Part shown: positions 3 to 54,000 of the stretch, one piece after another
Layout of the letters: the number at the start of each line of letters is the position of its first letter
How positions within the stretch are numbered: position 1 is the stretch's first letter
Assembly (NCBI GenBank): GCA_038222225.1
Contig: JBBRHV010000006.1
Span: forward strand, 1,626 to 65,625
Reading direction: 5' to 3'
DNA: 64,000 nt
Origin: Candidatus Omnitrophota bacterium
Lineage (GTDB): Bacteria > Omnitrophota > Gorgyraeia > Zapsychrales > JANLHA01
Program-made: the position numbers and the translations under genes
The notes under the pieces: generated by a model
The model's input: the letters and a program-made list of their open reading frames with translations, nothing else
The model's database searches: none
Told to the model about the DNA's origin: nothing

Positions 3-3000
3 TCTGATCAAAGGCCCAATTCTTCAGAGCCACTAGAAAACAATAAAGCGGTTGTTTCCAAGCTTCTGGCCGGGGTTGTGGTTCTGGTGAGCTTGGTATG
101 GCCGCTTGTTTTGTCCAAGGCCTTTGTATCAAAATATCTGGCGTTCACGCTTTGGGGCACATTGGGAGAAGGATATGTTTGGCAGCTCCTCACGTACAGT
201 TTTCTCCATACGAATCCTTTGCATTTGACCTTCAATGTGATCGCGTTTGTTTTCTTCGCGAATTTCATAGAGAGGGCAGTGGGGGTCAAAAGATTTTTGA
301 CTCTCTTTATCGGAGCAAGTGTTGCCGGAGCAGTCTTCCAGGTGCTGGCAATGGCCGCAAACAGTTTCACCTCGCCGGAATTAGCGGAGGCACTGGATAT
401 CACTCCTCTCATCGGACTCTCAGCAGTAGTAGCCGGGCTGATCGGAGCCTTCGGCGTTGTGCTGCGTGATCAGAAAGTGACATTCTTACTGTTGTTCATT
501 ATTCCGTTCCGCATCAAGGCGCAGCGGTTGGCGCAGATGTTGGTCACCGTCAGCATTGCGGCGATCATTTTCAATATAGTTCGCGGGGCCCAGGGCGGGA
601 TCGCCCACGGGGCGCACCTCGGCGGGCTTATTTTTGGTTGGGTTTATACGGAATATTTGCGGCGTGCAGGAAAGATCGATACGTTCATTATTGAAGAGGA
701 GAAACCCAAGGATCCTTCCGGAACCAACGCGGCGGTATTATCCAACTCAGATCCGGAAGGGGGAGTTGTTTCTTATCCGGCCCGTTCCAGCATCAGCGCT
801 GAAGAAAGGGAAGCAGCAAAACAGGGTACGGGCCCGGAAAATCTCAAGGGCTATGTCGTCAATTCACGGAAGATTCTGGGCGTTCCGGTTGAAGGTCTTG
901 AGATCAGTTATTCGGACCGCAGCGGACAAACAGTTGCTGAATATAAGCCGGGCCGTGTTGCCATTGATCTTTTGGGCCTTGGAGCCCGGGCGCCGCCGAT
1001 CGATCTCGAGCATTCTGCAAAATCCCGTCGCTTCCAGAGCATTATTCATGATGTTGTACGACAAATTATATTAGCTTCTCATTATTATGCCCTTTCAGAG
1101 AAAGATGTCCGTCAGGTTTCAGCCCGGCACTTTATCGGCCGGCAGCAAAAAGTTCAGAATTTTCTGGATCAGGAATTTAATCTTCGCGAATTCGGTCTGG
1201 TGTTTGATCCTGCCTATCTTGAGCTTTTAAGAAATTACCAGAGAATTGATCCTCAAATCGAAAGAATTAAAGAGCAGCTTGATCTCTTCAAGGGCGGGGC
1301 TGTGTCGTTTGAAGAGCTGTGTGAAGCTCTGGATGCGCGCGTTATTCTGAATGTGGCATCGCGTGCCTTATTTGAAGTGGGGAACAGTCCGTACCTGGTT
1401 AAAATTTACCGCGGCGGAACGCTGACGGCGAAGGCGTATGCCGCCGAAAAACAATTTTATAGAGAATATAACCCAACGGTCCAGCCGGAGCTGGTTTATT
1501 GTGATGACAATCTGCAGGCCTTGGTTGTGACGGATTTGAACCAGCTGGGATTGGTGCGCATGTTTGATTTTATTCAAGGGCCGTTCATTACGGAAGAATT
1601 GTTGGGTTGTTCGATTTCTTCCATGGCCCATGCCTTGGCGCAGCTGCATAGCAGCGCTGACGTGGCCTCGCAAACCGGTGAGCGGAAATTTGCTGAACTC
1701 AGGCATGAAGTGGACCGGGCGGTGGAGGTCTTAAGAGCGGCCGGGTTCCAAGGCCTTCCCGATGGAAAGAGCCTGGAGGATTTTCTTGCGCGATTCCAAG
1801 ATTCAGTAGTCGGAGAAAATGAACGATTGGTTCACGGCGATTATCTGATGTGGAATATTTTTGTTGACCCGGCAAGCGGAGAGGTGCGGGCCCTCATTGA
1901 CGGTGAGATGAGCGGTCTTGATTCTGCCGCTAAAGAGATGGCGAACACGATCCTGGGATTGATCGATGCCCGCAAGAATCATCCGTTCTTAATCAGTCAA
2001 ACTGCGGAGATGTTACGGTCGTTTTGGAGAGAATATATCCGGGAGACGAAAGACATTACCGGGCAGGAGATTTCTCCGGCGTTTGAGACTCGGGTCCATT
2101 TTTATTGCGCGGTCCAGTTGCTGATTGGCGCCAGAGTTGCGCATGAGAAATGGGCTAAATGGGCCCATTTCAGAATTGAGATGGCCAGGTTTTTCCTTAA
2201 TCAGGAAGCATTTTCATTGGAAGCTTTCATTGAGTTTTTGAATCATAATATTGGCAAACAACCGATCGGTTGGGTCGGGAATTTTGATGTTGCGACTCAG
2301 CACGGGCAGAGGCCGGGCTCGGGCGTTGAGATAATGATTGATGAAACAGGTTGGGCTGATTTCTTTGCCGAGGTTTGGGTTCCAGGAAACATCGGGGATC
2401 CGATTTTTGCATTGGGTATCGGAGCGGAATTACGTGTGACAAACAGAGACACCGGCGTTGTTTCGATTTGGAGGCCAGTGGAATTTTGTCATTTTGCGGG
2501 GAATAATTATCAATTTAGAGGAAGCGTGTTTTATCTCCAGGCGGGATCGTATGATGTGGAACCATCCTTCTCAGCGGATATGGGAGAAACGTGGTTTATT
2601 CCGCAACTCCCTTATGGCCCGTGTCATCTGACAGTGACAAAAGCATTGTCTGGGGAAGCGCCTTCAGAAAAGATAGTGAGTGTGGTCTTTTCTGACCTTC
2701 ACGGTGAGTTGAATGGTTTCCGTTCAGCGCTTGTAAAGCTCGGTATGATTTTACCGCAAAATAACCCGATGGAAGATATTTGGATTTCTCAAGATGTGAC
2801 GGTGGTTGTGGATGGAGATATCATGGATCGTGGTTTGCGACAGAAAGAGTTATACCACTATATCTGCCATCTCATGTTGACCGCCGAAGAAAGCCGTAAT
2901 CGGGTCATCTTTATCTTAGGAAATCATGAGCTGCTTCATCTTCAGGGGACTCCGGATGATTGGACAGCTCATGCGCTTACAGAAGTGATTAGAGAAGGTA

Positions 3001-6000
3001 TTCTTCGAGGAGATATTGTGGCAGCCGCGTATCTAGGTGGGCGTCTGATAGTTCATGCGGGAATTTTACCTTTTATTACCATGGATTTGATAAAGACATT
3101 ACGCCCAGGATTTTTGACTGTCGTTGCCCATCGGTCAGGAAAGTTCGTAAAGGATCTTACCGCGGTTGAAGTTGCCATCGAATTGAATAAAACACATAGC
3201 GTTCTTTCTGCTGACTCTATCGTGAATGAATTCAATCGGAGATTGCGGTTGGCGGTTGAGAAAGGCGATTATTCTGACGTTATTTTCCAGAGAGGGAACG
3301 CTCATTTTGGCGAGAACAAAAGGCCTGGAGAGTCGGGATATATACCCGGAGGCATATTCTGGGCAGACTATGAAAACGAATTGCGGCTGGTTGACCCGCG
3401 TGCGCTTATAGCGCAGATCGGAGGACATAGGGAGGGGAATGCGCTCCGTTGGACAAAGGGAGCCAGGGCTGTGAACGTCAATCTTTGTTATAAAGAGGGA
3501 TTTGGACGCAGCTCCGGAGTCGCTGTGTTTGATGGACAAAACTGGAAAGCTGTTTATTTTGATGGCCGGCCCATGCAAATTATTCCTGCTGTTATGGAGC
3601 GTGCTGTAAAACGACAGACAACAAATTCGGCAGCAGGTCAAGGCGGAACCAACGCGGCTGTTCTTGAGGGTGCGCCTTTTGAAGAACCGGAAACGGGTCG
3701 GATGAGCAGGCGAAGCATGCTGAAAATGCTGGCGCTGGCAGGAGCAAGCTTGCCGTTCATGACAACGACTGCTTTTGCTGATGAACCGACGGTTGATGAA
3801 GTTTTGACGGAACTTTTGAGCACTCAAACAGCGCATGGCCTCATTAAGAGTTTCAAGGGCACAACCGATACCTTCATGCAGAATCAGGCCGTGACCTATG
3901 ATCAGGCAGCCGCCGGGATCGCAGCTCTTGCGGCCGGAAGGACGGCGGAAGCGGTCAGGATTTTTAATTTCTTTTATAACCAGCATAATGGAGGAGATCC
4001 TGTCTGGAACGGGTTTGTGAATATGTATGATGCGACCCGCGGGGTCAAGGGCAACGAGCGCACGATCCACACAGGCCCGAACATCTGGATGGCGATGTTC
4101 AGCCTTCATCTTTATATGGCAAGCAGCGGTCAACAGGCCACGAAGGCCTTGACCCTTGCCAAAGCGCTCATGCAGTGGGCCAGGGGTTTGAATCATCGCG
4201 ATGGAGCGGTTGCCCTTGGACCGGTCCCCAATAATAATATTTTCTCAACAGAACATAACCTTGATTATTTCGCCTTCCTTAAAGGAATACAGTCGTTTTT
4301 GTCCGCGGCAGAAGCGGCGATCGTTCAAGCAGAAATGGACGGGGTTGGAACATGGTTAAAGACACATGCTTATGACCCGGCCAGAAGATTGTTCAAACGC
4401 GGAGCATATGAAAACCCGGTTGTCTATGCTACAGATACGTCAAGCTTTGCATTTTTATTGGGATCGCAGGTTCTGGAAGATTGGGGCATTGTTCGCTCAA
4501 CATTCATCGGCCAGTCCGATGCTGCCTATCGTGTCGGGACACGCGGTTTTGATGTGGCGAGTGTCGAGAACGCCAATTGGACCCCGCGTTCACGTTATGT
4601 CTTCAGAGAGTTTACTCTTCAGATGGCGGTAGGATTTTTGGTGATGGCTGATGATGAACACGATCGAGGCAATTTCACGCTGGAAAAAACGTATCGTGAT
4701 AAGGCTCAGCTCTATGCTTCTCAATCTGGCATAGATGGTGATTATCAATATTGTGAACAGACCGGGGTTCAGCTCTTTTATGATATTCCGAGCTGGAAAA
4801 CAATTAATGGTCAGTCGGCTTCGGTCATGGCCTGGAAGATATTTGCACTTCTCGGTTTCAACCCGTTTGGATTTGTTACAAAGGTGCGGCTGTCCGTCAG
4901 GCGTCTGGCGGCAACTGGAAATATGGAGTTGACTTTGCGCAAGGAAAGTATGGCGTCGCTCACTGCCGAGATTCTTTATTCAGATGACCTGGGAGATCAG
5001 AAAGAATGGAAGAGCGCCGGTTCAGTGGATTTGAGCGGCCTAAGGGCGGTTTGGGTCGATAACGGTTCTCAGACCACAACACATCCGTCGCAAAGCTCAA
5101 GGAGATTCTACCGAGTCTCGGCTGTAAATTCGTCTGTCCAGGGATTGGGCGCAGTCCATCAGGAGTCTAACGGTTTAGTGCCAGAGACGGTATTAATTGG
5201 GTCAAGCGCAGAGTATGGTCAAGAGTTCAAAGATGCGAATGCAGCAGTTTTGCAGGGGAAATTTGTTCAGACAGTGAAGACCAAAGGATCTGGGCTTAAT
5301 CGCTTTGACCTCGGGCGTTGGGGACGCGGGGCACTGCATTCAGTTCTTGCGCTAACACTGCTCACATCCGGTTGTGAGAAAAAAGAGGATACCCAGGGAG
5401 ATGCGTTGTCGGGAGTCGCGGTTCAGCCTGTTGATAGGAGCGCATTGGAGAACAGGATCAAGGAAGAGGTCCGGAAACTAGAGTATTCTGACAAGAACGC
5501 GGAGGATTTTGTAACGATGCTACGTCAATGGAAGAATGCTCAAGGCCAACCGGTTCTTACTGCGTGGGAGCAGAGCATTCTTAATGCCCGGAAACAATAT
5601 GAGCAGGGAGCCATGACAGCCGATCAGTTGGCCGGGATCGAAGCCGGGGTTGTTGGAGAAGTTGCGATGAGGATCGCTGAAGAATTTTCCGCGAATAATA
5701 ATGCTTTTGAATTGACCGATCTGATTGAAAAGAAACAGTCACAGTGTGTCAGCAGGTCAATGGCGGTAGCTATCGTCGGGAATGTACTTGGATTTAAGGT
5801 TGACTTTCTTGATGTTGATGCCAAGGAGATCAGGGCGATTGACGTTCCATTGGCGGAAAGAACTGTGGCGCATGCGGCCACCCTTGTACATTTGACCGGC
5901 GGGACCGTGATCATCGCCGATTCAGCGCTACGGTTTGTAAGCCGGCCGTTTTTAATGGAAGAAACCTACGCCGCAGTCGGGAACTATTGGGAACTTAAGA

Positions 6001-9000
6001 ACAGGAACGAACCGTTGTTGCTGCATGGACGAATCAGGAAGGCGTCTCTTTTAGCAGAGATTTATAACAATCGAGGCAACGCCTATGGAAGAGCCGGTCG
6101 TTATGAGGAAGCCTTCGCGCTGATGGCGAAAGCGATGGAAATCGATCCGGCATTGGCTGCAGCTTATTACAATCGGGGAGTTCAATATCAGGATCTAGGC
6201 CGGGTAGCCGAGGCAGTGGCGGACTATACAAAAGCGATCGAGCTTGATCCAAGAGATGCTGCTCCATATTGCAATCGGGGGAATATTTACAATACCGCAG
6301 GACGGGATGCTGAGGCTGTTGCTGATTATACGAAGGCCATTGAGCTTGATCCGCAATTAGCAGTGGTGTATTTCAATCGGGGAAATATTTATGGCAGATC
6401 AGATCGGCCAGAGGAGGCGATTGCGGATTTGACGAAAGTGATCGGGCTGAATCCGGAAGATGCCCAGGCTTATTACAGGCGGGCAGTGATTTACGGAAGA
6501 GTCGGTCAGTTAGAGAGCGCCAAAGCAGATCTCTTAAAGGTGCTGAATTTAAGTTCGGATGAAAAGCAAAAAGAACAGATCAAAGCTGCTGTTCGCAAGA
6601 TTGATGACATGCTTAAAGAAATGCCTAAGAAGAGCGCATCATCCAGCCACTCTGTTAAAAACGCTGAAACCAACGCAGCGATCCTTTATCCGTCACGCTT
6701 GGTGCCTGGACAAACGCCGGACTGGGCAATAAAATTCAGAACGACGTTGCCTAGCGATTTTGTTGAGGCGGCCGAGTCAGAGGATGGAGAGCAGGGCGTT
6801 GACAAGGTCATGTCGCTGGGGATTTGCCAGGATTCGCCGGACGTCTCGGAGCTTTTATCAAGATTTTATCGAGGATTGATGGAGAATAGCAACCCATCCG
6901 AGGTCCGCAGTCATTTGATTTATGACACGTGGTTAAAACTTAAAGAGAAGAAGATGGATGAATGGAACGCGACATTGGCGGTGTGGTTTACGTATGTGGT
7001 CTTTCAAAAAGCTTTAAGCATAGAAGCAAAACGATTAGCACAAAAGAATGCTCCGGCGCCTTCTGTTGAGGCATCCACAGAAGTCGCTACAGAACCATCT
7101 TCAAAAGGGCAGGAAGAAGGGGCGTCTGCCCGGGAAGATGAGCGTTACTTGGGGATTGTGATCGAGGTGGAAGGGTTTGGCCAGGTCACACTGACCGAAC
7201 GCATCGCCCGAAACAGCCGGACGCTTCTTTTTAAGACGAATCACCCTGGGCTTTTGATCAAACTTTTTGATCTGAACCACACCAGCATCGCCGGAGCCTT
7301 TGATCCGGTGATCGTCCAGAATTTTGAATTGGAACGCAATAATTTTGTCGAGGTCGCGAAGATCGATGAGCTGAGGCCGTATATTCCGCATTATTATCAG
7401 AGCGGCATCATCAAAGAGAGCAAGTACGCTTTCATCGCCATGGAATACATTGAAGGCACGGACTTAAAGAGCTGGCGGGAACAGGTTATTAACGGACGCA
7501 GTGAAAAGACTTTGACCGCCATTGAGTTCTGGCAGATGATGTCCCAGGCGATGAGCATTTTAAGAATATTCCACAAGTATGACCTGATCTTTTCTGATTA
7601 TAAACTTGAGAATATTCTAAGGCTGGCAGACGGACGTCTGAGGTTCGTTGATCTGGGAAGTGTTTTCCTTATTCATGGCTCGATCAAACCGCAGGATTTT
7701 CCGTATTCAGCAACAATGGAGGATTCGGAAGTTTTTGAAAACGCTGTCACTTTGAAGAACGGAAAGCCGCTGGCGAAAATTTCCGATATCTTCTGTGTGG
7801 GTGTGAGCCTGTTTGAATTCGCCACAGGCCAGGACCGTTTGACGCTGAGTCGTGAATATGCGGATATGCTTTTGACTCATTTACGCGTTATCAACCCGCG
7901 GATGTCTGAAACCCGGCTGTATTTTAATTATTATCCTCATCTTAAGGGAAAATTACCGACGCTGGAAGATCAGCTGCGTGAAGGATACGTCTTTTTTGCT
8001 GATTTTTGGCATTTGCTGCACGAAGTTCTTAAATATACCCAAGACGGTTATGAAGACATGGGACAGGCTGAAAAGGATGTTGTCCTGTTGTCGGCGGGGA
8101 TCGATTTTATCCGTAAGCAGCTTGGGCCTCTGGGCTGGGTGGCAGAGCCTGTTGCCCGGGCGACAGTTCTTAGACGCGTCCGGGTTGACAGTATTCATGA
8201 TCTGCTTTTGACGTTCCACAGCCCCTTGGGAGCGGAGGTCGTTGATGACCTTCGCCGTCACAACTGTTTTGTTGGTTGTGCTGAATCACAGTTCGGACAG
8301 CAGGGTTTCGTGGAACAGATGAGCACTTGGGACGTGCGTCTGAATTCGCACACTCAGCATTGGGCGGTCCAGGCGCCGGTCGCATTCAGGCATGATACAC
8401 AAGAAGCCGGTGCGTTGTTCTTGCAGCAGACCTACACGGATGAGGATGGCCATCGGTATTATCACATCACAAGCATGGAGGAGGCGGATGAATTGCCGAA
8501 CGGGGAAAAATTGACCCTGGCGCATTTGGAGGATGATCCGTACGCTTGGCTGGGAGCTCCATCGCAGGAAGATAATCAGGGTGGAAACTCTAAGAAAAAG
8601 CCTGTTCCAGCTCCTGAGAAAGAAAAGATAGTCATTGCGGGTAACGAAAGTGAGAAGCAGAAGAAAAAAACCAAAAGAAAATCCAGGAGGCAAAAGCTTC
8701 CAAAACCGACGACACGAGAGGAGGCCATCGCGTTGCTGATCCAAGCGGCCGGACGTGTTCCTTCGAACATTGCAAAAACCCCGCATCTTGTGGCCGACTT
8801 TTCACGCGGAGAGTTGACCGCAGCCAAGATCAAGAGCATGGCAAGGCAATGGGGGATTACGGGATATGATGTGCCGATCTCGAATTTGCCTTTTAGAGCG
8901 TATTCACGGAATGCTTCTTCAGACGAGCAAACAAATTCCTCTGTTCTGAACGAAGATATTTCAAAAACCGGACCTCCGCAGGGCTTTATTCATGTGGATG

Positions 9001-12000: not shown

Positions 12001-15000
12001 TTTTACCCGGAGATGTATACGCTCCCGTCTTTGAAGAGGCGACGATCCGGGCATTGAAAAAAGTGTTGAGCATCTTAAACGCTTCGCATGAAGAGATCAA
12101 GCCGCTTGTTGGTGAGATCAGTCATGGGGTCCTTGGGATCCGGGATATGAGATTTTTAAACATCGGCGGAAGGCAGATTTCGTTTATTTCTCGAACGATC
12201 CAACACGACGGCCGCGGGCGTGACTTTTTGGGACGATTGTGCATGGCTGAAAGCGGGGATTTGAACGGCAGGAAGGCGAATATGAATTTGCTTCGCATGG
12301 TCAAAGAACATGGCCGTCCGTATCCGGTTTCTGTCCTGTTTGCCTCTGGACGAACGATTGTCCAAACGCCGCAAGTCAACAGCGCGGTGCTTTTGACCGA
12401 ACCGCTGAGAAAAATGTTCCGCGCATTGAAACCGTGGCTGGTTATCGGCGCCGTTGCTGCCTGGGTGGGTTTTGAAAGAATGAATGCGAATCTCTTTTCT
12501 GGCCCTGAAGGGGGCGCGCATGAGAAATGGATCTTTCTCGACCTTGTTTTAGCCGCCGGTGTTATTGAAGAAATTCAATACAGGTTTGGCGTGTACAGGC
12601 ATGTCTTGAGGCCTTATTTCGGCGTTGTGCTGTCAGTCATCATCAGTTCTTTAGTTTTTGTGGCGGTCCATCTGATCTTTGCGGATGGGACCTTGATCGG
12701 TTTAATATATGTCCTGTTGTTTGGTGTAATTTCTGCCTTGATTTATGAAACCAGCGGCAAGCTGCGCTACGCTATTCTTCTGCACATGATCTCGAACTTG
12801 ATTTGGATCGGCATGAGCGCCGGTCCGTTTGCATATTTTATATTCACGGTCTCGCTTATGGCGCTGATGAAATTAAGCTTTGTTCTATTTATCTTCTATC
12901 ATACGGTCATCGCTGGCGTTAATGAGAGAGGAATCAAGGCCTTTGAACGTTTTGGAAAAACTGATTCGATTGATGAATGGTTAGGTCAAAAAGTTATCAG
13001 ACCGGCGGTGGCTGTGATTAAAAGCCGATGGGCAAAACTTGGCATGAATAAAATGTGGCGAGCAAAAAGCCCGGATGGAAAAGAACATCGCCGCATATAT
13101 GCTTTGGCATTCACAATCAGTGGATTGATCCTGACCTTGCAGTTTGCCGGAGACAGGATGTTCAGATTGTTCTATCCGGTCTCGCCAAGACCTTTGATCA
13201 CTCAAGAAGAGATGCGACAGAACATTCAGCGGGAGAGGGATAAGTTTGAAGCAGCAAAACGTGCCGCCCTCGCACAGACGCCAGGACTCACCACCAATGA
13301 TATTTTTGGTGTGATGTATTCTTACAAAGCGGATCTTTCATTGATCCGGGTTGTTTTATTCCATGACGGTCGCGCATACAGCGTGGAGGTGACATCGTCA
13401 GGTGAGACAATTGTCGATCCGGTAGCGTTATCATGCTACGAGGGCATTCTTACGCTGTTATTTTCCGACGGGCATATGGACAGACATCGTGAACTTCCTT
13501 TAAACGAACGGACTTGGAATGAAGTTGAAGCTTGGAAAAATAGATTGCCTCAAAAACCTGCACCTAAAGTACGGTCGAAACAGGGCGCGCAAAATTCATA
13601 TCATAAATTCAATACAGCGAGTTTGTACAAAGGGGTCAACAGCGCGGTGTTGTTGGGTTACTCGGATAAAGAAGCGTGGAACAAAGAGTCCGGGTTTTTG
13701 CTGGATACATTTTTTACATTTGAGCAGTATGTCGCGGCGGCTTTATATGATCCGGCCTGGGGATTTTATGGCAGTGGGAAGATCAAACTAGGGTTTGATT
13801 TCGGAACCATGCCGATCGCGCTGTCGCCGTTTTTCGGAGAGAAGGTCGCTGAGCGTGTGTACGAGATGTATATCGGCATGCTGAAAGCCGGTACCATCAG
13901 GCCGGATGAGCCGTTTTACATGATCGAGTTTGGGGCGGGAACCGGCGTGTTGGCAAGGGACGTACTGGCATTCTTTAGAGAACAAGCTAAACGCGGACGG
14001 GTTTATAAACGATTCTATGACAATTTGCATTATGTGATCAGCGACCGATCTAGCCCGCTGCTGGAAAAACAAAAGCAGAAGAATGCGGAGTTCTTGGAGG
14101 AAGGCAAGATCCAGTTTGTGATCGGCGATGCTCAAGAGCTTGAAACATTCTTGGAGAAAGAGCGTCCGATCAAGGGAGTTGTATTCTCCAATGAGCTTTT
14201 GGATGCCTTCCCGTCCCATAAAGTTTACATGGATGAACAGGGAGTGGCACATGCCATGGTCTCGATACCGGCTCTTGTCGATCAGCACAGTCCTGATCTC
14301 AGGCCTGGCAGCAGAGGCCGCCTATCGTCAACGATCAGCTTGTTGGCGCAAGTCGGAAAGGTGCTTAAGGCCCACGGGCTTTCGCTTGAAACATTAACTC
14401 AAAAAAGCCGTGAGTTCGCAGGGCGGTCGAATGTAGTCAAACAGATGGTGGATGATGGGGCCGTTGTTTTAAGTCGGGAGGATTTCTGCCGTATCCAGGA
14501 AATTTTCTCCGGTGAGAAAGTCAGTATGTATCGCGAGCTTATCCACAGGGTTATGGCGTTCTCTGAGATGACGGTTCCCGCGGCGCTGGTGCCCGGTTTA
14601 AAGGAATATTTAGATTTCCACAAAGATGAAATGAGGACGGCCCTTCAGGGAGAGTCAGGATGCGCAGTTGTCTCTTCCGGGTGGCTTTCGTTTGCAAAGC
14701 ATGTTTCCGGTTTGATCGATCAGGGATATGTCTTTACGATCGATTATGGAGAGACTACGGCGACATTGTTGAGCGCCAGGCGCAGAGAGAATTTTCCGAT
14801 TTCGATCTATCATCGACGTTTGGGAAGAGAGCGCAATCCTTATCTTCACCCTGGTGATGTGGACATATCGGTTGCGCCGGATTTCACGGTCTTTGCCCAG
14901 GCGGGGCTTGTTCATGGCTTGGTTCCGGTTTATCACGGGGAGCTCCGGTTCTTGCAGGCAGATTCAACCGAAAGGATTGACTCCGCGCAAACCGCTTCAC

Positions 15001-21000: not shown

Positions 21001-24000
21001 CGACAAGCGCCAGTGTTCTAAATGGAGAAAGCCAGGAAAGTGCGGACTTTGGCGAGGATCAAGATTTATCTCAGATTCTGTTGATGGCCCAAAGGGACCT
21101 CCGGTCTGGGAACCTTTCGCGGTTTGCCGGGATCAATGCTGAAAATCATAAAGAGCGATTATCAGGATTTATTTCTGAGAGCATTCTTCAGAATGAGCGT
21201 TTTGCGCAGGTCATCGGCCTCTTGTCATTTATTTCTGATAATCAGGCTAGGTCTGCTTATGGCTATTCGCCGATTTGTGAACATATGAGTCAGGCGGTTG
21301 CGGTTGAGACGGCAATAAAAGAATTCCAGGTATTAGGCTTGGCGGGCTGGAAGGTCGATTCGAGAGTTTTGACCGGTGTCAAGGATTGGTGGCCCATCGG
21401 TTCTCATCATTCAGCCGCGATCGTTGTGATCGGGGATATTCGTTTCTTTGTCGATATGACATTTCCTGTTCTCATCGAAAGCAATTCAGATTATGCGGAT
21501 TTAAGCAAGCCTCATGGGCTTGTGATGATCCCTGAACAAGTTTTGATCGAACATCCTTCGTTCCTTCAGCTTTATCAGACAGGGATCGCCAGATCCATGG
21601 ATTGCGGATTTTCTGAAATCAAGGGCGTCCAAAGGGAGGATTTAAAATTGACCATGCGGCTCCTTTCTTTAGACGAATTTTCTGATGTGATCGAAACTAT
21701 TCCCGATGATTTTGTCGCTGAACGCTACTCCAAAGAAGAGAGAGCTGCTTTACCAGCCCAAATTGAGAGCCAGGCACTCAAGATCTATTGTTTCTATCTT
21801 CCTCGGGCGGTTTCTCAGGGAGTCCTGGCAAAAGGAGTCGGCATGGTTTTTGTCCGCCAGGAGGGAACGGGCCGTCGCGAGATCGATTTCTTTTTCTTGC
21901 GATGCAGCCTCACTTATATGGGATTTGGGCCGGAAATGATTAGGCGCGTTTTGAGAGAACTTCGCAAAGGAACATCAGGCGTGAAGGAAGTTGGAATAAG
22001 CTCCGGGTTCTTGAAGATGCTTCCGGAAGACAACGGGTCTTCAAAACGGGCAAGGCTTTCGAGAAAGTTCTTTTGCTATCTGGGATTTGAAGGTGATCCG
22101 TTGACGTTGCGTTTGCAAACTTCCGAGGAAAAAAACAAGGTCCCCTCCGCAGCGACAAATGCTTCGGTCATTTTGGATGGAAAAACCTTGAGCGAACAGA
22201 AACCGCTAACGGTTGAAGAATCGTGGCAGCTATTCGCCAGAAAGTTGGAGAAGGGGGCGCGTACGAATAGTCATTCTGGATTGGAAGACAATCCGGTCAT
22301 GTCGCATTTTAACGAGACGAAAAAAAGGAACGCGAATAATTCCTTTGAAACAAATGCGTCCATTCTTCTGGAATGGAGATTGAGGAAAATCATGCAGCCG
22401 TTTTTTGAAGGCGGATATTACGTCGAGAAGCAGGGGGATTCACGTCATGAAATGTTTCTGCGCGTGTGCCATCCGGAGCCAGAGAGACAGGGCGTGTTTC
22501 GTGGTGAAGACAAGACCCGCGCTTTCTGGGTTCAAGCGAGGGAAGATGAGTTTGAGGTCAACTGGGTCTTTCCGGATCTTCCGCCTGGCAAAGGTCTGGG
22601 GCGTGCTTTCATGGCCAGTGCACTTTTATTGCAGGATGGTTTTTGTGGAGGAAAGAAAAAGTTTATTATTGAAGACACAAAAATCTGGTTGTGCCGCAGC
22701 TTCAGAAAGCTTCCCGGATTCGGGATTTTTTATTGGGCGAAAACGTTTCAGTTTGTTGCGTTGCTGTTTTGGTTGGCGGGCCGCCGGGATGTTCTGAAAT
22801 ACAGGCTGACCGGGCGCGTACCCGAGGTTTCAGCGAAATTTAAAGCCTGGCTGCATGAAAGAAATGAACACAACAAGGGCAAGGCTGTAGGGACAGAGCT
22901 TCGAACGACCAATGCCGCGGTGTTGGGCCGTTGGGTGCATGCGTTCGAAGAGGGGTGGGGGCGTGCGGCGAAAACAACCTTGAGCAGGGTTGCTGATGAA
23001 TCGCTTGCATGGAAAAGAAAAATTAATGAGTGGGTCTCTTGGCTGAAAATTTGCCTGCACGTGACGGACCGCAGTGATCGAGTGGTTGCGGCACAGCAAC
23101 AGGATATCCAGATTATTGGAAACAATTTCGGTACGGAGCAACACCCAGCCCGCGTCGGATCGGTAGTTCATATGTCCAGTTCGCATGAACAGGACCCGGG
23201 ACTACCGGTCTGGCGCACATATTTCGAAGGAAAACTCAGCGGCGGGGTAAACGCGGCTGTGCTTGTCCCTGATCGCATGGGCAAGACGTCGGCGGACTAT
23301 TTTGATGAACTTGTCGCGCAGTTTAATGATCAAAACAATGAAGTTTGGCAGAGATTTCGTGCTTCTGTTGAAGCGAACCCCGATCAGTACGATTCAGTTT
23401 GGTTGAAAGTTTTGAAGCAGGCGCGTGCATTAGAGGTTGAAACACAGAAGCAGGTTCAAGAACCCGTGAAGATATTTTTATCGCTGGATTCCGTCTTGAT
23501 CGTTCCTGAAGATGGAAGCATGACCGGTCCTTTATTGCCGTTGGCGCCGGATTCGGAAGCAACGCATCATTTGCCTGCCCTGCCTGTGGTGCCGGAAGCA
23601 ATTCTTTTATTCATTTTCGTTTTGAGCCGCAAAAGACAAGGCCGCGGGGGGAAAGGCAGGGAGTACAGTTTAGCTGCATTCGTTGAGAGCATGCAGAGCC
23701 GATGGAAGGCCGTGAAACGTGCTGGTTTTACGGGCAAAGATTTCTTTGGAAAACGCCATGTCTATAATCTCACGTTGCGGTCTTCGTGTCGGAATTTTGC
23801 GTCAACAGGGTTGAGTGATCCGTCCGTAAAGTTTGCAGGAGAAAGTAACGCATCAGTTCTGAAGGATGCAAAGAATCGTGAGAAGCGTGACAGTTTCAGA
23901 AGTGGACGGCGGTCTCTTTCTGTCGTGTTCACCGTTCTTGGAGTTGCGATCGTTTTGTTTATCGCGCAGACAGCTTTGGCAGGATTGGAAAGGGCGGCCT

Positions 24001-30000: not shown

Positions 30001-33000
30001 AAAAAAGGAAGAACCGGATCCATTTGCGTCCGGCCAGTAGAATTGTTTATGTTGCGAAGTACATCTGGGATCAATTGAACATTCGTATGATCGTTGAAAA
30101 GGAAGGAGATCAACAACAGGTGGATGCCCGAAGTATCAACGGCCTTGCACGTCTGGCAATCTTTGACGGGGAAAAAATTTCAATTCGAACAGAGGGCTTG
30201 GCAGATAGGCAGATCAAAGGCAAAGCGGTTGAACTTTTTGCTAGGATTTTGAGAGACCCGGGGGTTCTTCAGCACAAAACGATTTGGGACATTTTTTATT
30301 TCTTTGATGAAGGGCGGGGGATAGATCAATTGTCCTTGCGTAAATATAAGCGTGCGGTTGATTTGATCAAGCTGGATGCGGCGGAGTCGGACCGACCTGA
30401 TAGGGCGCAAGTCAATTCCTCAGTTCTATTCGGAGCATCTCTGGCGCAGATCGATGCCTCTATCGTTGGTGATGTGGTCGGAATGATCATGTTTGCTTTG
30501 GGGTCGGCGGTTACCTGCATTGCGGCCCTGTTGATATGGCTGGTTAGAACACAGCGGTTCCGTATTCATGGGTTCTGGGTTAGGAGCTATACACCGGAGG
30601 AGATGAAAATTCGCCGGAGCGTTCATGCGCGGATGATCGATTTTTGCATCGGAAGCAAGCATTCTCAGAGAATGGCAGCTCAACGCATGGCGGGCCGTTT
30701 TACGCATTCGGCACGCAAATCATACAGATATCTTGTTGATATCTATGGAAGAGAAAAAAGCAAAACGGAATTTTTAAAATTTTTGAGAGAAACAGAAAAG
30801 GATCGACTGGTTACTTTTTTAGTTTTCTTAGAAAAGAAGAAGATGCGGTTGATCGTCGCTCCGCGATTTGTGGAAGGCGGAAAAGAATTCCGTCATCTGG
30901 ACATGCAGCATGGGTTCGCTTTGGAGGGCGTTCTAAAAAATTATGTTTACGGATATTTTGAAGGGATTGACCCAACGGACGATCAAGGAAAGATCGTGCT
31001 GATGTATTTGGCGGGGGAGGAGGGGTTCAAACAGCTACAAGAGTTGGCATTTTTATTTATTACAGGCGGAATATCCATAGTGAAGCCAGTCGAGCTCTTT
31101 ATGGATTCGGGAACGATAGGTGAGATCAAGACTGTGCGTGATCTTTTGCGTGTTGAGTATTTCTATCAGATAAAAAAGCAGAAGCAAAAAGAGGCGTTAG
31201 AAAAACGCATTGCCGAGGATAGGGCCGCGCAAGACGGGACCAACGCGGCGGTTTTAGAGAACGGCACAGCGGATCATGAACAGGACGGTGGCGAAACAAA
31301 TGCCGCGGTGCTGGATTCCGAAAACGAAAGCAAAGGGGAATTTTTGGCCGGGACCCAGCAGGGGATTCGGCTTGGGCTTTTGACACTTGAGGAGGCGCGT
31401 CTTTGGGAGAGGGCGGCAAAGATTGTTGATGCTCCTGTCGGCATGGAGATAGAATTCAGTCATCCGGAAATTGCGACATTAGGTGATGATGAGTATGATC
31501 TTCCCTATTATATTAGCGAACATTATTCGGATCCTCATTTGGAATTTAATCTTGAGCCATCTTGGAATCTTGGCATTCAAAGATATTTGGTAAGGCATAT
31601 TTACCGCAGTATGGGGTTGTCTGAGGATGATGTGATCTCGGTCCAGTTAAACTGCGGTATCCGCAAGAAAGATTATGAGGGGCTTTCTCAAGCTTCCCGC
31701 GGATTATTTTTATCTATGGCGCATTATTTAATGCTTGCGGTTACGATCGTTTATGCATCAAATCAAAGGATCTTATCAAAGAAATCAGAAAAGGTGGCCG
31801 AAAAACGGGATTGCGCTGAACCGCTTGATGGAGAACCCTACATTCGGATCGAATACGGTTTTCTTGATACGATCGATGAGGGGTGGCTGGTTCTCTGGAT
31901 CTTGCATCAGGTTATTTGGAAAACTGCAAGGTTCAGCGACGATCAAAAAATTTCCGGCAAACTCATTCGTGAAGAGGAGCAGTTGCTAATCAAGATCGGG
32001 CAGGACATGGTTATTCAATTGCATGAACGTCTTCCAGGTATTAGAGGATTAAGTGCGAATGATATATTTGACCTGTCGGATGCTCGGACGTGGTTTAGGT
32101 TGGTTCCGTGGCGCCAGGAAAATCCTGCTACGGTGAAGGCCATTGACAATCTTCTCCAGAAAACTGTGCTTCAAGTTTTGTCCACTTTAGGAGGGTCAAA
32201 CCATACGCCAGAGAAGGAAGTGCCGGTTTGGATTTTACCGGCTGGAAATCGGGAGACATTTTTAAGATGGTTTGGTAATCGGGAGCAGGCGATTGCTCAT
32301 ATTCCTGAGCCTACAGGTGGACAGGACGAGGTAAGGGATGGCGGAGTTAATTCTGCCGTTTTGGATCAGAGAAACATTGTTGGTGTTGAAGTGCACTGTC
32401 CGGCAGGATCAGGATATTGGCTGAGAGATATTCTTTATGAAGGGATCCCGGTTCAAGGCGGGCTGGTGATCCGGTATTATGATCAGTCGCGGTGGTCGTC
32501 AGGAATTGCAGGGATACGGACGGTTCGCAGTGATCATGGATTTTTTACAGAAGTGGATATGTTAAGAATATTAAATGGAGAGGTCCCGACAGACATTTTC
32601 TACGTGGGGGCTTTTCATTTGGGATGTGTTCGGCATGCGTTTGAAAGCGCGCTTCAAATTCAAAAGACAGGCCTGTGGAACGGGTCTCAAGCAAATCATC
32701 ATTTCATTTCAAACCGCATTGCCTGTGATTGTGATGATTTCGATATTCGTGTCAGTGATGCTTTGCCGAGGCTGAATCTGAGGACTGCAACGCCGTTTGC
32801 CTGGCGCAGAAATTGGAGTGTCAAAGCAGCGGTTATTCGGGGAGATGAGGTTGTAAGTAACACACGATTTATCGATCAGCTTCAAGCGAGGCTTTATTAT
32901 TGGAACGATGTGCCGGAATTTAAGGAATGGATAAGCCGTGGGATTCAGCAGACAAACGCAGCGGTTTTGAACCAGAGAATGTTTGAGATCGTGGATACAC

Positions 33001-39000: not shown

Positions 39001-42000
39001 TGGCGTTCGCGGAAGATCTTGTTGCCCTCATGCCGGATCCTGAACACTTTGATGAAACGGGTGAGTGGATGACGTGGTTTAAGCCTCATGCATTTAATGG
39101 GAAATTCACCCTTGAAGCATGGGGTCTCGGGCAGGAGTTCATCGATCGGTTGAACAAGGTGCGCGGGGCAGACACGAGCAAAATCAACAGCGTCGGGGTT
39201 AATTCGTCTATTTTTGGTCATTTATTCGGGGCAAAGAAAGAAGCGGCAGACATTGATTCTACGGAGGTCAGACAGGAGATAACAGAGTGTGATTTTGATC
39301 AGGCCGTGCGCGGAGTTCGACGCCTGGTTAATGAAACGCCGACAAATGAAATTGCAAAAGTTCTTTACGGCCTGCTTCAGTATGAGGAGGACTATTTGTA
39401 TTATCAGATTGTTCGTTATGAGGCTGCCAAGAGAATAGCCAAGGCATCGGTGGAGGAATATGAAGATCTGAAACAGTTGATCAGCACATTGCGGATGCTC
39501 GGGAAGATGATTGAAGATCGCCAAAAATTGTTTGAGGAAACAGGGGAAACGAACGTTGACTTTTATTTATTAGCCCTTCGACAGTCTCGACAGAAGTTAG
39601 CAAGATTATTCCGTTTTCATATTCGGGGGTATGAGAATCTTGACCGGGTCGTTCAACGGTTGGACAGCGACACGGTGGAGTATTTATTTTCGTTCTTCAG
39701 CAGGGCATCAGTTCAAGAATTCACCAGCTTAGATGAGCTCATGCAGATCATGACATTTGTCCGGCGGCGCACTTCTTTGGTGGATGAAGATCTGTTGGCG
39801 CGCGCCAAAGAAAGCCTTGAACGGATCATGGTGGAATGGGTTTGTGAAGTCGGCGGAGAAAAGGATCCTGATCTAAGGAGCCAAGAAGTCAGGAATATTC
39901 TAGAATACATTACACAGCATGATCGGACATTCCGTCAGAAATTGAAAGAAGGCATCAAGAGGGCCATTGGTTTCTTAGCCCGTCAAATCAGAAAGAGTCA
40001 AGATGACGCAAGGGAGGCGCAAAACTTGGCAGATAAGAAGGCCGTTGAAGGACGGCAAAACACACTGATTGATTTAAGCGTGAGTTATTCGGCGCTGATG
40101 ACAGCAGTGGATGATGAGTCAGGAGACGGAAATCTTGATGGAAACAATTTATGGGAAAGCCAAGACAGCCAACAGACAGATAAAAAATCAAACAATGATT
40201 TGGGTGCAAATGCTTCTGTATTGATGGGAAGAGAAAATTACAGGCATCTTAAAAAAAGATTTGATGATACAAACGCGGCGCTATTGATTGGAAGAAGTGA
40301 CAGGTCACAGACAAACAAGGAAATAAGGGCGAAGAGGCTCATTCAGGGGTCGATTTTAAATGCGTTTCTCTTTTGTCTTCCTGCTTTGGTCATTGCGGTG
40401 ATCGCTGTTGTGACTTGGGGGCCAAGCTGGAAGATATTTGTGGCGGTCTGGGTTATTCTGGCGTTAACACGGTTTGCAATGTCCATGCGCCATATTCCCG
40501 ATATTTGGAGAACATTGCAGGGCTTAGGTACGCCAACGAAGGGCGGCATCATTGAATTGGCTAAGGCCACTAAGACCAAGATGGAAAGGAAAGCTGTGGC
40601 GCGTGAGCAAGCCCGCAAGAAAGCGATTCATCAGGCCAAGGCTGCTATGGGCAGGGTTTCTCCCAAGAGTTATGCCATACAAGAGGAGTATAGCACCGAG
40701 GTGGGCCGAAAGATCCCGGCGGAACTTAGAAACGACGAAGAAATTGTTGAGCAATATGAAAAATTGACAGCCCGTGCGGAAGAATTTTTTGCGCGCAAAG
40801 TACGTTCACAAAAACCGAAAGAGACTGCGCCGCAGCATATTCCTGAGGTGGCACCAATACCGATAGAGCCTGTCCAAAGACAGGAAGCGCCTGAGGCGCG
40901 CGAAATGGCCAGAAAACGGTTCATTCGTCGACAGCTGGCTGAGGCGCGCCGTTATATTGAAAAGCTGGACAGCCGCGGGTTTATGAGCGCGCATGAGTTT
41001 TTGAACGCCGCCGAAACGTTTAAACCGGAGTGCGTTAAAACATATCCGGATGATGCTCAGGTGAAGGATTTTCTGACGTGGTTTGATTGTGCAGTTCAGG
41101 CTGTGGCACAACAGGTCGCGGATAATGTTCGGCGCATGGAATTTGAGGAGCGCAAAAAGGAACTGCTGGCATCATGGCGAATGATGGTTGAGAAATTGGA
41201 AAGAGCCCGGCAACGGCTGGATCAGGCTATGGCGGCAAGGATTTCCAAAGACCGCGCTTCGTTGGCAGAGTTGCAGAGAAGGATGGATCAACAGGTCGCG
41301 GATAATGTTCGGCGTATGGAATTTGAGGAGTGCAAAAAGGAACTGCTGGCATCATGGCGAATGATGGCTGAGAGATTGGAAAGAGTTCGGCAGCGGCTGG
41401 ATCAGGCTATGGCGGCAAGGATTTCCAAAGACCGCTCTGCGTTAAGTGAGTTGCAGGTAAGGATGGATCATCTGGCAGCGACCATAGAACAGCTTCGTCA
41501 GGCAAAAGATGTTTTGCGCGCGTTGACTTTGCCATCCGCGACCGCCGGTGAGGATGATTTGCGATCCGCGATTTTACAGGTGCTTCCCGTTGAAGTCAGA
41601 GAAGACCCGCGCTTGGCGCTTTTTATCGAACAGGCCAGGTTGCGGTTGTATGAACACGCTGTGACGCGGGTTTTGGATATTTTGTCTCAGTCTTCAGTTG
41701 ACCCCAGAACTTTTGATGACAGCGAGGCCTTCCGCCAGGCATGGATTGCGAAAGTGCCGGTATGGATGCAGGAGGATCAACGTATCATTGCAGCCCTTGA
41801 AGAGCGTATTGATCAAGGCCTTTTGGTAATAACCGAACAGGAGAAAAAGTCTGCTCAAGTTAAAAGGGAACAGGCATTAGAAAAAAGAGCGACTATTGGG
41901 GAACTTTATACCGCCTTAGGAAAAAATGATTTTGGAACGGCACTGACGAAAGCCTTTAAGTTGCGCACATTGGTTGCTGATATGCCGGTAGAGGATTGGT

Positions 42001-51000: not shown

Positions 51001-54000
51001 TATATATTCTTTTGGTGCGTCAGCCGGTAAGAGAAGAATATAAACTTTTAGCCGAAATATGGAGTGTTGCGGGCTGGCTTGGGGAGCATGGCGTCAATGA
51101 GAGCAATATGCATGAGCGGTGGGTTCAGGAGCTTTTGGAGCTGCGTACGACGATTAATGCTTTTACCCGGTATCCGGTCCGGTGGTTCGGCCTCTTTGGT
51201 GCAGTACTGATGTACTGGCCTGCGGTGTTCATACATTTTGTTTATAATGCCCGATGGTTGGTGCGCAGGGTTATCCGGGAGGTTTTGTCAGGGGTGAAGG
51301 GTTCGACAGCAACTGTTTTTGTCGGCGAAGCTGCCATGGTCAGAGAAAAGAAAACATCCTCGGCATATCAAGTCATTGTTGAAGAGCTTTGGAATTTGAG
51401 GAGTTTTTATCCTGGGAAGATCTATCTGCGATCAAAGACTATCCTTTGGCTGATGGTGTTCGCTGCCCGATGGATTCTCCGGAAACAGTTATCCACCAGC
51501 TCGGTCGTGGTGCTCGAAAAGAGCAATAACCAGGGTGAAATAGGAAGTGGGCATTTACGGGTTTTCCGGGCATTTGTTTTTAGTTTTGGTTTGAAGTTGG
51601 AATTATTCAGGGCAGATGAGTTTTTGCTGATATCGACAGAAGAGCAGTTTCCAGCCCAATTCGACAAGTTGAAAAATTTATATGCGATGATGAAGCCTTC
51701 CCAGGCTTTTCCCTTAATGGGGGGATGGGCGGCCTCACCGGATCTCGCTATGATCATAGTTTCTTATATCATGAAATATCGTCCAAAAGTTGTTCTTGAT
51801 TTGGGCAGCGGAACTTCGACAATCATCATTGCTCAGGCTTTGAAAAATTTATCCTGCAGCCAGTCCCGCCGCACTTCTGCGGAACGGGCAGGATTCCGCC
51901 TAACGGGTGAAAAGATTTTGGGGGCTCCACAGACAGGGCATGTGTGGTCCATGGAGCAGGACGCAGCCTATGCAGGAAAGACGCGGCAAAATTTGGATGC
52001 CCATGGGCTTGGTACTTACGCGACGGTTATTCATGCTCCGATCAGAGAATATTCGAATCACAACGGCACGGGAAGATGGTATGACGTTTCCCGGCTAGAG
52101 GGTATCGGCCCGATTGATTTGGTGATTGTTGATGGGCCGCGTGGCTCAGGTCAAAGAGCTGGGGCCATGCCGATTCTTTTTGATCATTTAAGCGATGAGG
52201 TTGCGGTGATCATTGACGACACGAGCCGGGTGGCAGAACAGGAAATGGTTGAGAAATGGCTGAGAGATTTTGAAGGGTTCCGCGCGCAGGAAATTGACAC
52301 GGAAAAGGGGACGATTATTTTAAGAAAAACAAAAGCCGCCATGGATGGCGAAGAGGCAGAGCCTATTTCCTTAGAGTCTGAAATCAATGCCGCGGTGCTT
52401 GGAAATGAATCTTCGCCTAAAGAGGATGGGACAAATCACCAGGAAAAATGGTTTTTCCGAGATGCAAAATCCGGTGCGGTCGAAGTCCATGAAATTGCCG
52501 ATGATAATGGGGAAACAATTTGGCAAGTTCTCCAGGAACAGGAAGCGAGAGAGCAACCGGTTTCTGACAATAGCGGGAATAAGATCCAGGGAGCGACAAG
52601 CGCTGCGGTGCTGGGCAGTGGAAAAGTTGGCCGCAATGATCCTTGTCCCTGCGGCAGCGGGAAAAAATACAAGAAGTGTTGTGGGGGGGCTTCCGCTACT
52701 CAACCTTTCGCAGCGCCGGCATTGAACACAAGAAAGAGCGTCGGACGATCGTTCAGGTTTATTGCCATGGCTGATGGTCAGGTTCAAGATCTTTCTCCGC
52801 CGGCAGCGTGGGAATCAGGTTCCGTGGCCGTTTCTCCCCAGCCTGTCCATGGGCGCGCTGCTTTAACCGGGACGGTCATTCCGGCCAGACTTGAGCATGC
52901 TGAGCGCATACTCGCGCTATCCAAGAGGGTCTCCTCATCTACCCCTGTTTCGATGAATGTGATCATCAGATCCATACAGTCCATAGCTGAAGATTTCAAT
53001 GGTGAGCCGAGAATTTTTGTTTACATAGAGAAGAACGTGGTCTTAGGGTATACGTTCGCTTCCATTTATCCTTCAAGGAAACTGGTTTATATGGTTCAAA
53101 CATCCGTTGATCAACAGCATGAAGGCCGCGGGATCGGACGTTATCTGCATCAGTATTTGTTTGATGTTGTGCGAAGCCAGGGACACAAAAAAATCTTTTC
53201 AATATCGAATCCTCGTGCGGCGAGCATCCTTTGTAAGGATGGTTTTCAGGTTTTGACAGACGCCCGAAAACTTCCAGTGATCAGCATTGATCTGCGCGAT
53301 GATGAAAATGTCGTATCTTTGAATGCGACGTTGGAGGATGTTCTCTGCGTGGGGATTATGCGGGTTCTTCTGCCGACCAATCTGGTTGCCATTGATCAGG
53401 CGTTAATTCATGGGGATATGCCCGGGGTTCAGCATCTTGTCCGGACGAATTTTATTTTTGCCTGGCTGCGAGCCAGCGGCATTCTTCCTTCGGATGAATT
53501 CCGACGGAAGATCATTGCGGATTTTAACAGACGAGGGGCTGGTAGGGCTATGCAGCAGAATGAAGAGACGCTGGTTGTGGCCTGTGCGGTAGGGACTTCA
53601 CAACATCCGTCCTCGAGAGATGAAAAATTATGGCAAAGGGAGGGACGTACATTGCCGGCGTCTTTTGATCCGTTAGAAGATTTTGCGCAGCATTGTGTGG
53701 ATGTTGTTTTCCACCCCAAAGAATATGAACAGAGGTATCATTCGGCTGATGAAAAAGATCGACCTCGTTTATTGGCGCAGTATGCAGTTGTGAGGGATGT
53801 TCTTCAGCAGTCCCTTCCTGGCGCAAGAGATAGAGGACAGTCTTCTGGCGGAAGGGGACAGTCCCCCCGCGGGGACAATCCCCAATCGACCAACGCCGCG
53901 GTGCAGGTTTCTGATTCCATTCCGACGCCTTTGACTTCTGAATTTATTCGAACGTTGTCCGTTGGAAAGAGAAGTGTAACGTCATCCGAAAAACGCATCC

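Follow-up and report, generated by a model that had tools for sequence, protein, structure and literature searches.

How could a signal peptide of the twin-arginine translocation (Tat) type act from a position more than a thousand residues inside a protein? The question is raised by a 64,000-nucleotide stretch of Candidatus Omnitrophota DNA (GenBank assembly GCA_038222225.1, contig JBBRHV010000006.1, positions 1,626 to 65,625 of the forward strand; the whole stretch is hereafter called the window). It carries a giant open reading frame (ORF) of at least 18,937 aa (56.8 kb), in which some 40-55 protein-sized modules of unrelated Pfam families follow each other in one frame, with a median length of 390 aa between short recurrent peptides that we call junctions. 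Module 3 opens with one of these junctions, which is followed by a Tat-type signal and then by a domain of predicted glycosidase-like fold (Table 1). We propose, with a probability of about 0.55, that the giant ORF would encode an operon-sized polyprotein, from which module 3 would be freed at its junction, exported by the Tat system and trimmed at AFA↓D (arrows mark predicted cleavage sites).

The internal Tat-type signal and its passenger domain

A preliminary description of this DNA had reported, 12 residues past a junction and about 1,200 residues inside the chain, a Met followed by an SRRxxLK motif, a hydrophobic core and an AxA-type end. All these elements are confirmed by translation, as is their depth in the chain: at least 1,208 residues precede Met-1209, since the frame contains no stop from nt 3 on (residue numbers start at the GTG at nt 78), and the signal is not N-terminal as encoded. 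The same description had pointed to signal predictors and to orthologues as touchstones for the signal. Started at Met-1209, the peptide passes the curated NCBIfam Tat model TIGR01409 with 17.4 bits (cut-off 16.7); started at the junction, it scores 16.5 bits. The segment is conserved in two related loci, L004 and L003.

The core SRRSMLK follows the consensus S/T-R-R-x-F-L-K with M in the place of F. A strict form of this core, [ST]RR.[FLMIV][LIVM]K, was seen once in the 18,937 aa, against 0.04 occurrences expected, and a relaxed pattern covering the full signal occurs once in the ORF against 0.07 times per shuffle. At E<=0.05, TIGR01409 matched 1 of the 40 segments of 60 aa that follow the junctions, namely that of module 3, and in family scans of the short peptides the Tat signal models were the sole matches. 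The h- and c-regions together form a stretch of 18 uncharged residues with a mean Kyte-Doolittle (KD) hydropathy of 1.23, which contains Gly and Pro and ends in AFA↓D; the other hydrophobic segments located behind junctions reach window-maximum KD values of 1.5-3.1. A short and weakly hydrophobic h-region with Gly and Pro is typical of Tat signals. In its S-R-R-x-(F/M)-L-K core, its weakly hydrophobic h-region and its AxA c-region, the peptide is like the ordinary bacterial Tat signals described by TIGR01409 and PF10518, from which it differs by being internal to the ORF and by the acidic character of the n-region that the proposed cut would leave.

In the locus of RA.bin146 (L004, protein P0002), where module 3 is 75% identical, the corresponding stretch reads NAAVL-AAGESGDWM-LSRRQMLKGLVLAGMALPFMTSRAYA↓DEP. 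In GCA_023818655.1 (L003, protein P0003), with a module 3 that is 38% identical, the contig is cut at the motif and starts with SRRTFLKNSSLAALAALFGIRSSARA↓GE. The residues S, R, R, L and K are invariant in the window, L004 and L003, and the c-region, which ends in AFA↓D in the window, ends in AYA↓D and ARA↓G in the orthologues. Both orthologues have an added Arg in this region; basic c-region residues are typical of Tat Sec-avoidance, and they are unfavourable in a transmembrane helix. The linker before the signal has diverged (AAGESGDW in L004) and identity is high again straight after the AxA. This comparison suggests that the signal is held by selection in related giant ORFs while the preceding linker diverges fully. 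In the more distant giant ORFs L005 and L006/P0109, the module 3 domain is again preceded by an internal segment, here Sec-like. A second association of a junction with a Tat-like signal was found in L004 at 6719-6920 (NSAVL...NRRGFLKSLAVLCGGLAV, with NRRGFLKSLAV), which scores 18.4 bits with TIGR01409, above the cut-off; the module behind it has no Pfam match. The clade is rare in public data, and two metagenome scans for relatives found nothing.

The domain carried by module 3 has no match in Pfam. Its AlphaFold2 (AF2) model has a predicted local distance difference test (pLDDT) score of 77.7 overall and mostly above 90 for module residues 45-405; the first 18 residues behind the junction and the last 37 ahead of the next one are disordered. 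Foldseek searches of the PDB gave a probability of 1.0 to dextran dextrinase, MmpH, cellobiose 2-epimerase and GH8, with target-normalised TM-scores (template modelling scores) up to 0.70 for the last three. The model therewith indicates a passenger with a predicted (alpha/alpha)6 barrel fold of glycosidase-like type. In an alignment of 18 sequences, the acidic residues E201, D262 and E320 do not vary, and D84 and D301 hardly do. An exhaustive HMMER search with module 3 collected 215 homologues, most of them with N-terminal signals or anchors (a word-indexed search had given one distant match only). Among the stand-alone relatives of 380-500 aa, N-terminal signal peptides lie at the place of the internal Tat signal, most clearly in P0021, P0045, P0046 and P0104; in others the signal or anchor lies farther upstream, and P0001 has a transmembrane anchor instead. 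Since its stand-alone members carry such signals and anchors, the domain family is extracytoplasmic.

Junction peptides and module boundaries

The junction pattern N[ASG][AS][VIL]L is present in 40 copies in the ORF, compared with 0.52 expected, and NAAVL itself in 14 copies compared with 0.04. The extended consensus is (G/E/Q)-(T/A/V/I)-N-(S/A)-(A/S)-V-L. Variants of the motif number at least 14 more (NSAVV, NASVI, SAAVL, SASVL and NAAVQ among them), and some junctions of the ORF look degenerate (NSSVQ, NAAVS, NAAVG). Each of the five other frames has 0-2 copies of the motif, and 2,070 aa of neighbouring genes have none. Its codons vary synonymously (AAC/AAT, GCN, GTN, CTN/TTR), and this free variation argues for selection on the peptide and not on the DNA. 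The flanks are polar and depleted of hydrophobic residues. At nine junctions orthologous between the window and L004, the five residues of the motif are 89% identical and the 20 residues on each side 21%. A hydrophobic segment is found 8-50 residues after 8 of the 40 junctions (3.7 expected, p=0.026); in most of these segments K+R are more numerous in the N-flank than in the C-flank, a bias that the other hydrophobic segments do not have, although the numbers are small.

The junctions coincide with the limits of what is exchanged between genomes. Shared modules are collinear between the window and RA.bin146 and 48-73% identical, and modules are present or absent as a whole: L004 is without module 4 and modules 9-12, and everything upstream of module 3 differs. 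Of the 13 ends of synteny blocks, nine are no more than 13 aa away from a junction (P about 4e-9), and another one coincides with a SASVL variant. The absence of module 4 from the syntenic site of L004 indicates an insertion or a deletion bounded by junctions. Inside the ORF, the paralogous modules 9, 34 and 31 align from the first residue of the junction. Modules 17+18 (22911-23846) are similar to module 41 (56070-56888) save for GKLSGGVNAAVLVPDRMGKTS, which replaces GKLSMAEADRMGKTS; one copy has the junction GGVNAAVLVP where the other has MAEA, so that junctions can be gained or lost inside a protein. Taken as a whole, this pattern of shuffling suggests that module 3 moves as a unit bounded by junctions.

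Some junctions stand in tandem, 19 and 21 residues apart, at nt 31242-31313 and 40209-40286 (NAAVLENGTADHEQDGGETNAAVL and NASVLMGRENYRHLKKRFDDTNAALL); if both members of a pair were cut, tiny spacer peptides would be released. A concatemer of the 40 junction contexts, used as a query, retrieved only the unrelated P0152 with YadA-like head repeats. The giant-ORF fragments L006/P0109 (GCA_002792715.1) and L003/P0003 are without NxxVL. Over its 3,011 aa, P0109 contains eight copies of SSP[VI], most of them in the form (G/S)SSSP(V/I), and signal-like segments come after several of these; where L004 has the junction that closes module 3, the homologous site of L003 reads ASSPL. The SSSP(V/I)-type peptide of P0109 and P0003 may be a lineage-specific junction motif.

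Proposed release of module 3 and the alternatives

According to the polyprotein scheme, the modules, which include cytoplasmic enzymes, kinases, acetyltransferases, membrane proteins and exported proteins (about 40-55 in all), would be joined in frame by junction peptides lying in polar, disordered linkers. An endopeptidase recognising the junction would cut the chain, a step probably located in the cytoplasm and possibly simultaneous with translation, and the twin-arginine signal would then lie 12-17 residues from the new N-terminus. The Tat translocase would export the six-hairpin glycosidase-like domain already folded, signal peptidase I would remove the signal at AFA↓DEP, and the freed modules would each follow their own targeting signal. 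For a domain that would fold long before the chain is finished, Tat would be a sensible route. The N-terminal position which a Tat signal requires would be attained only if the chain is cut at the junction, a cut that we infer from the sequence. The preliminary description had seen in module 3 a former autonomous exported protein, or one that still behaves as such, and this view is strengthened by the stand-alone relatives, the conserved signal and the shuffling bounded by junctions. It had also stated that the signal needs either a cut or a nearby translation start; the cut, placed at the junction, appears to be the better supported of the two, and for the nearby start no enrichment of Shine-Dalgarno (SD) sequences or start codons was found.

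Several points weigh against this scheme. The cut itself, the bond it would break, the protease that would make it and the recourse to Tat are all deduced from sequence. Besides a rhomboid and a CPBP protein, no protease came out of Pfam and NCBIfam scans of the whole ORF or out of a catalytic-motif scan, and these two intramembrane proteases are not expected to cut soluble cytoplasmic linkers. The Pfam Tat model PF10518 gives 17.3-17.9 bits, under its gathering score of 22.7, and the n-region left by the proposed cut would be acidic. The enrichment of hydrophobic segments behind junctions (8/40 vs 3.7) is modest. The Tat region is visible in two independent relatives only, and the junction and the Tat signal occur together in a single independent orthologue (L004). 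The distantly related giant ORF of L005 is without a recurrent junction motif, so that the junction scheme is not universal among Omnitrophota giants. Finally, Pfam and NCBIfam annotation of the ORF and its neighbours found no tat genes in the window, and tatA and tatC are documented only at phylum level, in a table of KEGG Orthology (KO) entries which lists K03116/K03118 for some genomes (Seymour et al., PMC10066038).

The chain could also remain uncut, as a polytopic giant in which the Tat-like segment would be an internal start-transfer or signal-anchor sequence (Sec/YidC) placing the glycosidase-like domain outside, an explanation that we regard as doubtful. The same holds for its extension, in which signal peptidase might clip after AFA in a flavivirus-like manner and the junction would be a linker, a docking motif or a modification motif. 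An uncut chain corresponds to the current reading of the literature, where hydrophobic segments are taken as transmembrane helices and internal signal-peptide calls are discarded as chunking artefacts (bioRxiv 10.64898/2026.06.07.730766). The 43-57 hydrophobic segments of the ORF and the failure of Pfam, NCBIfam and motif scans to find a junction protease are in agreement with it, and the parity between module 2 and module 5 in the window could work with two segments. However, the h-region is short, has a KD mean of 1.23 and contains Gly and Pro, the orthologues have Arg in their c-regions, and a simple anchor needs no selection for an exact SRRxxLK core. Topology raises a further difficulty: the Tat signal and the lipobox signal of module 4 follow one another, both with positive N-flanks and without a hydrophobic segment between them, so that an uncut chain would contain two consecutive signals of N-in type and the lipobox Cys would land on the wrong side of the membrane. 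Furthermore, module 4 has a single segment, and its gain or loss between the window and L004 would flip all downstream domains of an uncut chain, including a protein kinase. Nor does an uncut chain explain why a peptide of 5-7 residues is the most conserved part of otherwise drifting linkers and lies at the points of shuffling.

Three other explanations are clearly unlikely, even when they are added together. It is improbable that the signal is a fossil, decaying and without present function, of a stand-alone exported gene captured as module 3; stand-alone homologues with N-terminal signals do exist and the degenerate-looking junctions (NSSVQ, NAAVS, NAAVG) would fit such a decay, but the core has not changed even where overall identity is down to 38%, next to a linker that has fully diverged, signal-type features have been kept through compensating substitutions, and other giant ORFs retain a signal before the module 3 domain. 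Internal translation initiation at Met-1209 (nt 3702), which would make the signal N-terminal without a cut, is highly improbable and was rejected. An ATG is located exactly at the signal start, and the L004 orthologue has a Met two residues before SRR; yet nt 3702 is preceded by no SD sequence, although a neighbouring gene has a strong one, an SD sequence with a start codon follows junctions once against 2.7 times expected, and no promoter signal rises above chance. Initiation would also fail to explain the conservation of the junction at the amino-acid level. More generally, internal promoter or terminator signals are not above chance in the window, and no Rfam families or ribozymes were found in it. 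The last explanation, to which we give just as little credit as to internal initiation, makes the junction a ribosome-acting, 2A-like 'StopGo' element which would release the modules during translation without a protease, the Tat signal then working as in the polyprotein scheme. It would account for a protease that was not found and for a motif selected as a peptide and lying exactly between modules. However, a 2A element depends on a longer stretch of conserved residues upstream, which ends in NPG↓P, and conservation in the junctions covers only 5-7 residues, preceded by variable ones; to our knowledge, StopGo has no bacterial precedent.

The proposed release of module 3 at its junction has parallels in known systems. 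The flaviviruses, pestiviruses and hepatitis C virus (HCV) derive many products from one ORF, and a protease site on the cytoplasmic side is located a few residues upstream of an internal signal, which is followed by a signal-peptidase site (C-prM). The succession of a protease site, 12-17 residues, a signal peptide and a signal-peptidase site at C-prM is like that proposed here; in viral polyproteins, though, translocation is co-translational, by Sec in the endoplasmic reticulum, and a known protease forms part of the chain, whereas our case concerns a bacterium, about 40 modules and a Tat-type signal. Bipartite presequences of the thylakoid lumen contain a Tat (delta-pH) signal, internal at first, which works only once an upstream proteolytic cut has brought it to the N-terminus, but there a stromal processing peptidase removes a short transit peptide, and here more than 1,200 residues of other proteins lie ahead. 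Gingipain/HagA polyproteins and the staphylococcal Atl are single products processed into several functional proteins; their processing follows export, they rely on one N-terminal signal and their products are few and related, unlike the dozens of unrelated modules considered here, with mixed destinations and each with its own targeting signal.

Tat signals, polyproteins and the giant ORFs of Omnitrophota are each already known. For these giants, cleavage has been considered possible with cleavage points unknown (West-Roberts et al. 2023, bioRxiv 10.1101/2023.11.21.568195; Seymour et al. 2023, PMC10066038), and a survey of huge proteins named unknown protease motifs as an obstacle. In the searchable literature we found no junction or cleavage motif for these giants, no mention of NSAVL or NAAVL in this context, and no paper combining 'polyprotein' with Omnitrophota. 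The ORF is like published Omnitrophota giants in its length above 20 kb, in the many unrelated Pfam domains that tile one chain and in its many hydrophobic segments; it differs from them by the recurrent junction peptide and the conserved internal Tat and lipoprotein signals, which define units. We extend the proposal tentatively, at a little less than even odds, to the 'multi-enzyme' giant ORFs of Omnitrophota in general: these could be operon-sized polyproteins whose modules, shuffled like cassettes, would be freed by a dedicated protease at lineage-specific junctions, TN(S/A)AVL in the window and, possibly, GSSSP(V/I) in another lineage. The mixed destinations of the modules (cytoplasmic, membrane, Tat-exported, Sec-exported and lipoprotein) would belong to this extension, and we hold them with the same reserve. 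An internal Tat signal behind a junction makes the question of cleavage testable, as it predicts cut sites, products, destinations and a mature N-terminus DEPTVDE. If the proposal is true, a cellular organism would rely on polyproteins as viruses do and on an operon scale, the record sizes of bacterial 'proteins' would be those of precursors and not of mature proteins, and junction motifs could be used to split and annotate giant ORFs and to guide the search for the protease.

The giant ORF, its host and its other modules

Open from nt 3, at the window's 5' edge, the ORF has no SD sequence ahead of its GTG at nt 78; the gene therefore probably starts upstream and the protein would exceed 18,937 aa. 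The residues encoded by nt 3-77, before the rhomboid module, include ...ENNKAVVSKLL..., which may be a junction variant. An alternative genetic code was ruled out because TAA, TGA and TAG all terminate genes in the window; the flanking genes are ordinary (HMGL-like, KDPG aldolase, radical SAM, MnmA, MutL) and end in TAA and TGA. An assembly artefact was ruled out as well by two independent assemblies: a Logan assembly (L001) matches the final 2.4 kb of the ORF, stop included, at 100% identity, and L004 comes from a separate metagenome-assembled genome (MAG). Among 185,579 species genomes, the closest loci are those of the Candidatus Omnitrophota MAGs RA.bin146 and GFS_5990, in each of which the entire 21 kb examined is a single uninterrupted frame. 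With its Omnitrophota relatives, a length above 20 kb and many hydrophobic segments, the ORF belongs to the known Omnitrophota giant ORFs, in the class 'multi-enzyme metabolic cluster'.

Pfam and NCBIfam recognise in it a rhomboid protease, an APH-type kinase, a metallophosphoesterase, TPR, a protein kinase, HATPase_c, a CPBP/Rce1-like protease, a COG1565-type methyltransferase, at least 5 GNAT acetyltransferase regions, HPr, a PLP-dependent dehydratase, an alanine dehydrogenase, HTH and a SEC-C motif. The coordinates of the features are collected in Table 1.

Table 1. Features of the giant ORF, with emphasis on modules 3 and 4 (positions in nt of the window)
Feature	Position	Strand	Remarks
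Giant ORF	3-56891	+	stop TAG 56889-56891; listed as 78-56891 from GTG at nt 78; about 41 modules
Module 1, rhomboid-family intramembrane serine protease	78-725	+	PF01694 E=2.4e-23; best NCBIfam match rhombosortase, below cut-off
Junction copies, examples	726, 3651, 5238, 6672, 10275, 22911, 31242, 56070	+	N[ASG][AS][VIL]L
Module 3	3651-5237	+	NAAVL junction to next NAAVL junction
Junction NAAVL before module 3	3651-3665	+	aa 1192-1196, GGT precedes; 1 of 40 copies
Variable acidic linker EGAPFEEPETGR	3666-3701	+	12 residues, junction to Met-1209; pLDDT <50
Tat-type signal peptide MSRRSMLKMLALAGASLPFMTTTAFA	3702-3779	+	aa 1209-1234; DEPTVDE comes next
Twin-arginine core SRRSMLK	3705-3725	+	within Tat-type signal
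h-region of Tat-type signal	3726-3761	+	within MSRRSMLKMLALAGASLPFMTTTAFA
c-region TTTAFA	3762-3779	+	predicted signal peptidase I site between nt 3779 and 3780 (AFA↓DEP)
Predicted six-hairpin (alpha/alpha)6 barrel, glycosidase/epimerase-like	3783-4865	+	AF2, Foldseek
C-terminal beta-rich domain of module 3	4878-5126	+	AF2 strands, module residues 412-492, pLDDT 50-65
Degenerate junction NSSVQ	5127-5141	+	same position: TNAAIL (working-type junction) in L004, ASSPL in L003
Disordered tail/linker of module 3	5142-5237	+	pLDDT <50, module residues 493-529
Module 4	5238-6671	+	signal, Cys/His/Asp domain, TPR repeats; absent at L004 syntenic site
Junction NAAVL opening module 4	5238-5252	+	aa 1721-1725
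Lipoprotein-type signal of module 4, RFDLGRWGRGALHSVLALTLLTSG↓C	5301-5375	+	lipobox LLTSG↓C, Cys-1766, about 30 residues past junction
Module 10, CPBP/Rce1-like intramembrane glutamic protease	12378-13637	+	PF02517 E=6.4e-13; MrtJ/MrtS-like, below cut-off

The signal of module 4, a second internal export signal, lines up with the membrane anchors at the N-termini of P0153 and P0154, stand-alone homologues with which the module has in common the invariant Cys-170, His-212 and Asp-228 (module numbering). Module 4 may be a cysteine-peptidase-like lipoprotein; the AF2 model of its Cys/His/Asp domain, with a pLDDT of 42, is unusable. The rhomboid and CPBP matches of modules 1 and 10 hint at roles in protein sorting rather than in junction cleavage. 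The preference of rhomboids includes a small P1 and a hydrophobic P2', which the junction fits if cut after position +2; a rhomboid is nevertheless unlikely as the junction protease, because its active site faces the outside of the membrane and the junctions lie in soluble linkers. Sequence searches of the PDB with the first 9,000 aa gave no protease. Two candidate motifs were rejected: L004 does not share the 'GFCGG' of module 16, which itself looks like a GNAT protein, and the HExxH motifs of module 36 are within chance expectation and have no family match.

An antisense ORF of 353 aa overlaps the signal (3135-4196, minus strand); it has no family match and is probably a spurious by-product of the long sense frame. 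At nt 52599-52685 (aa 17508-17536), a SEC-C zinc-binding motif, which is usually located at protein termini, lies directly behind a junction variant.

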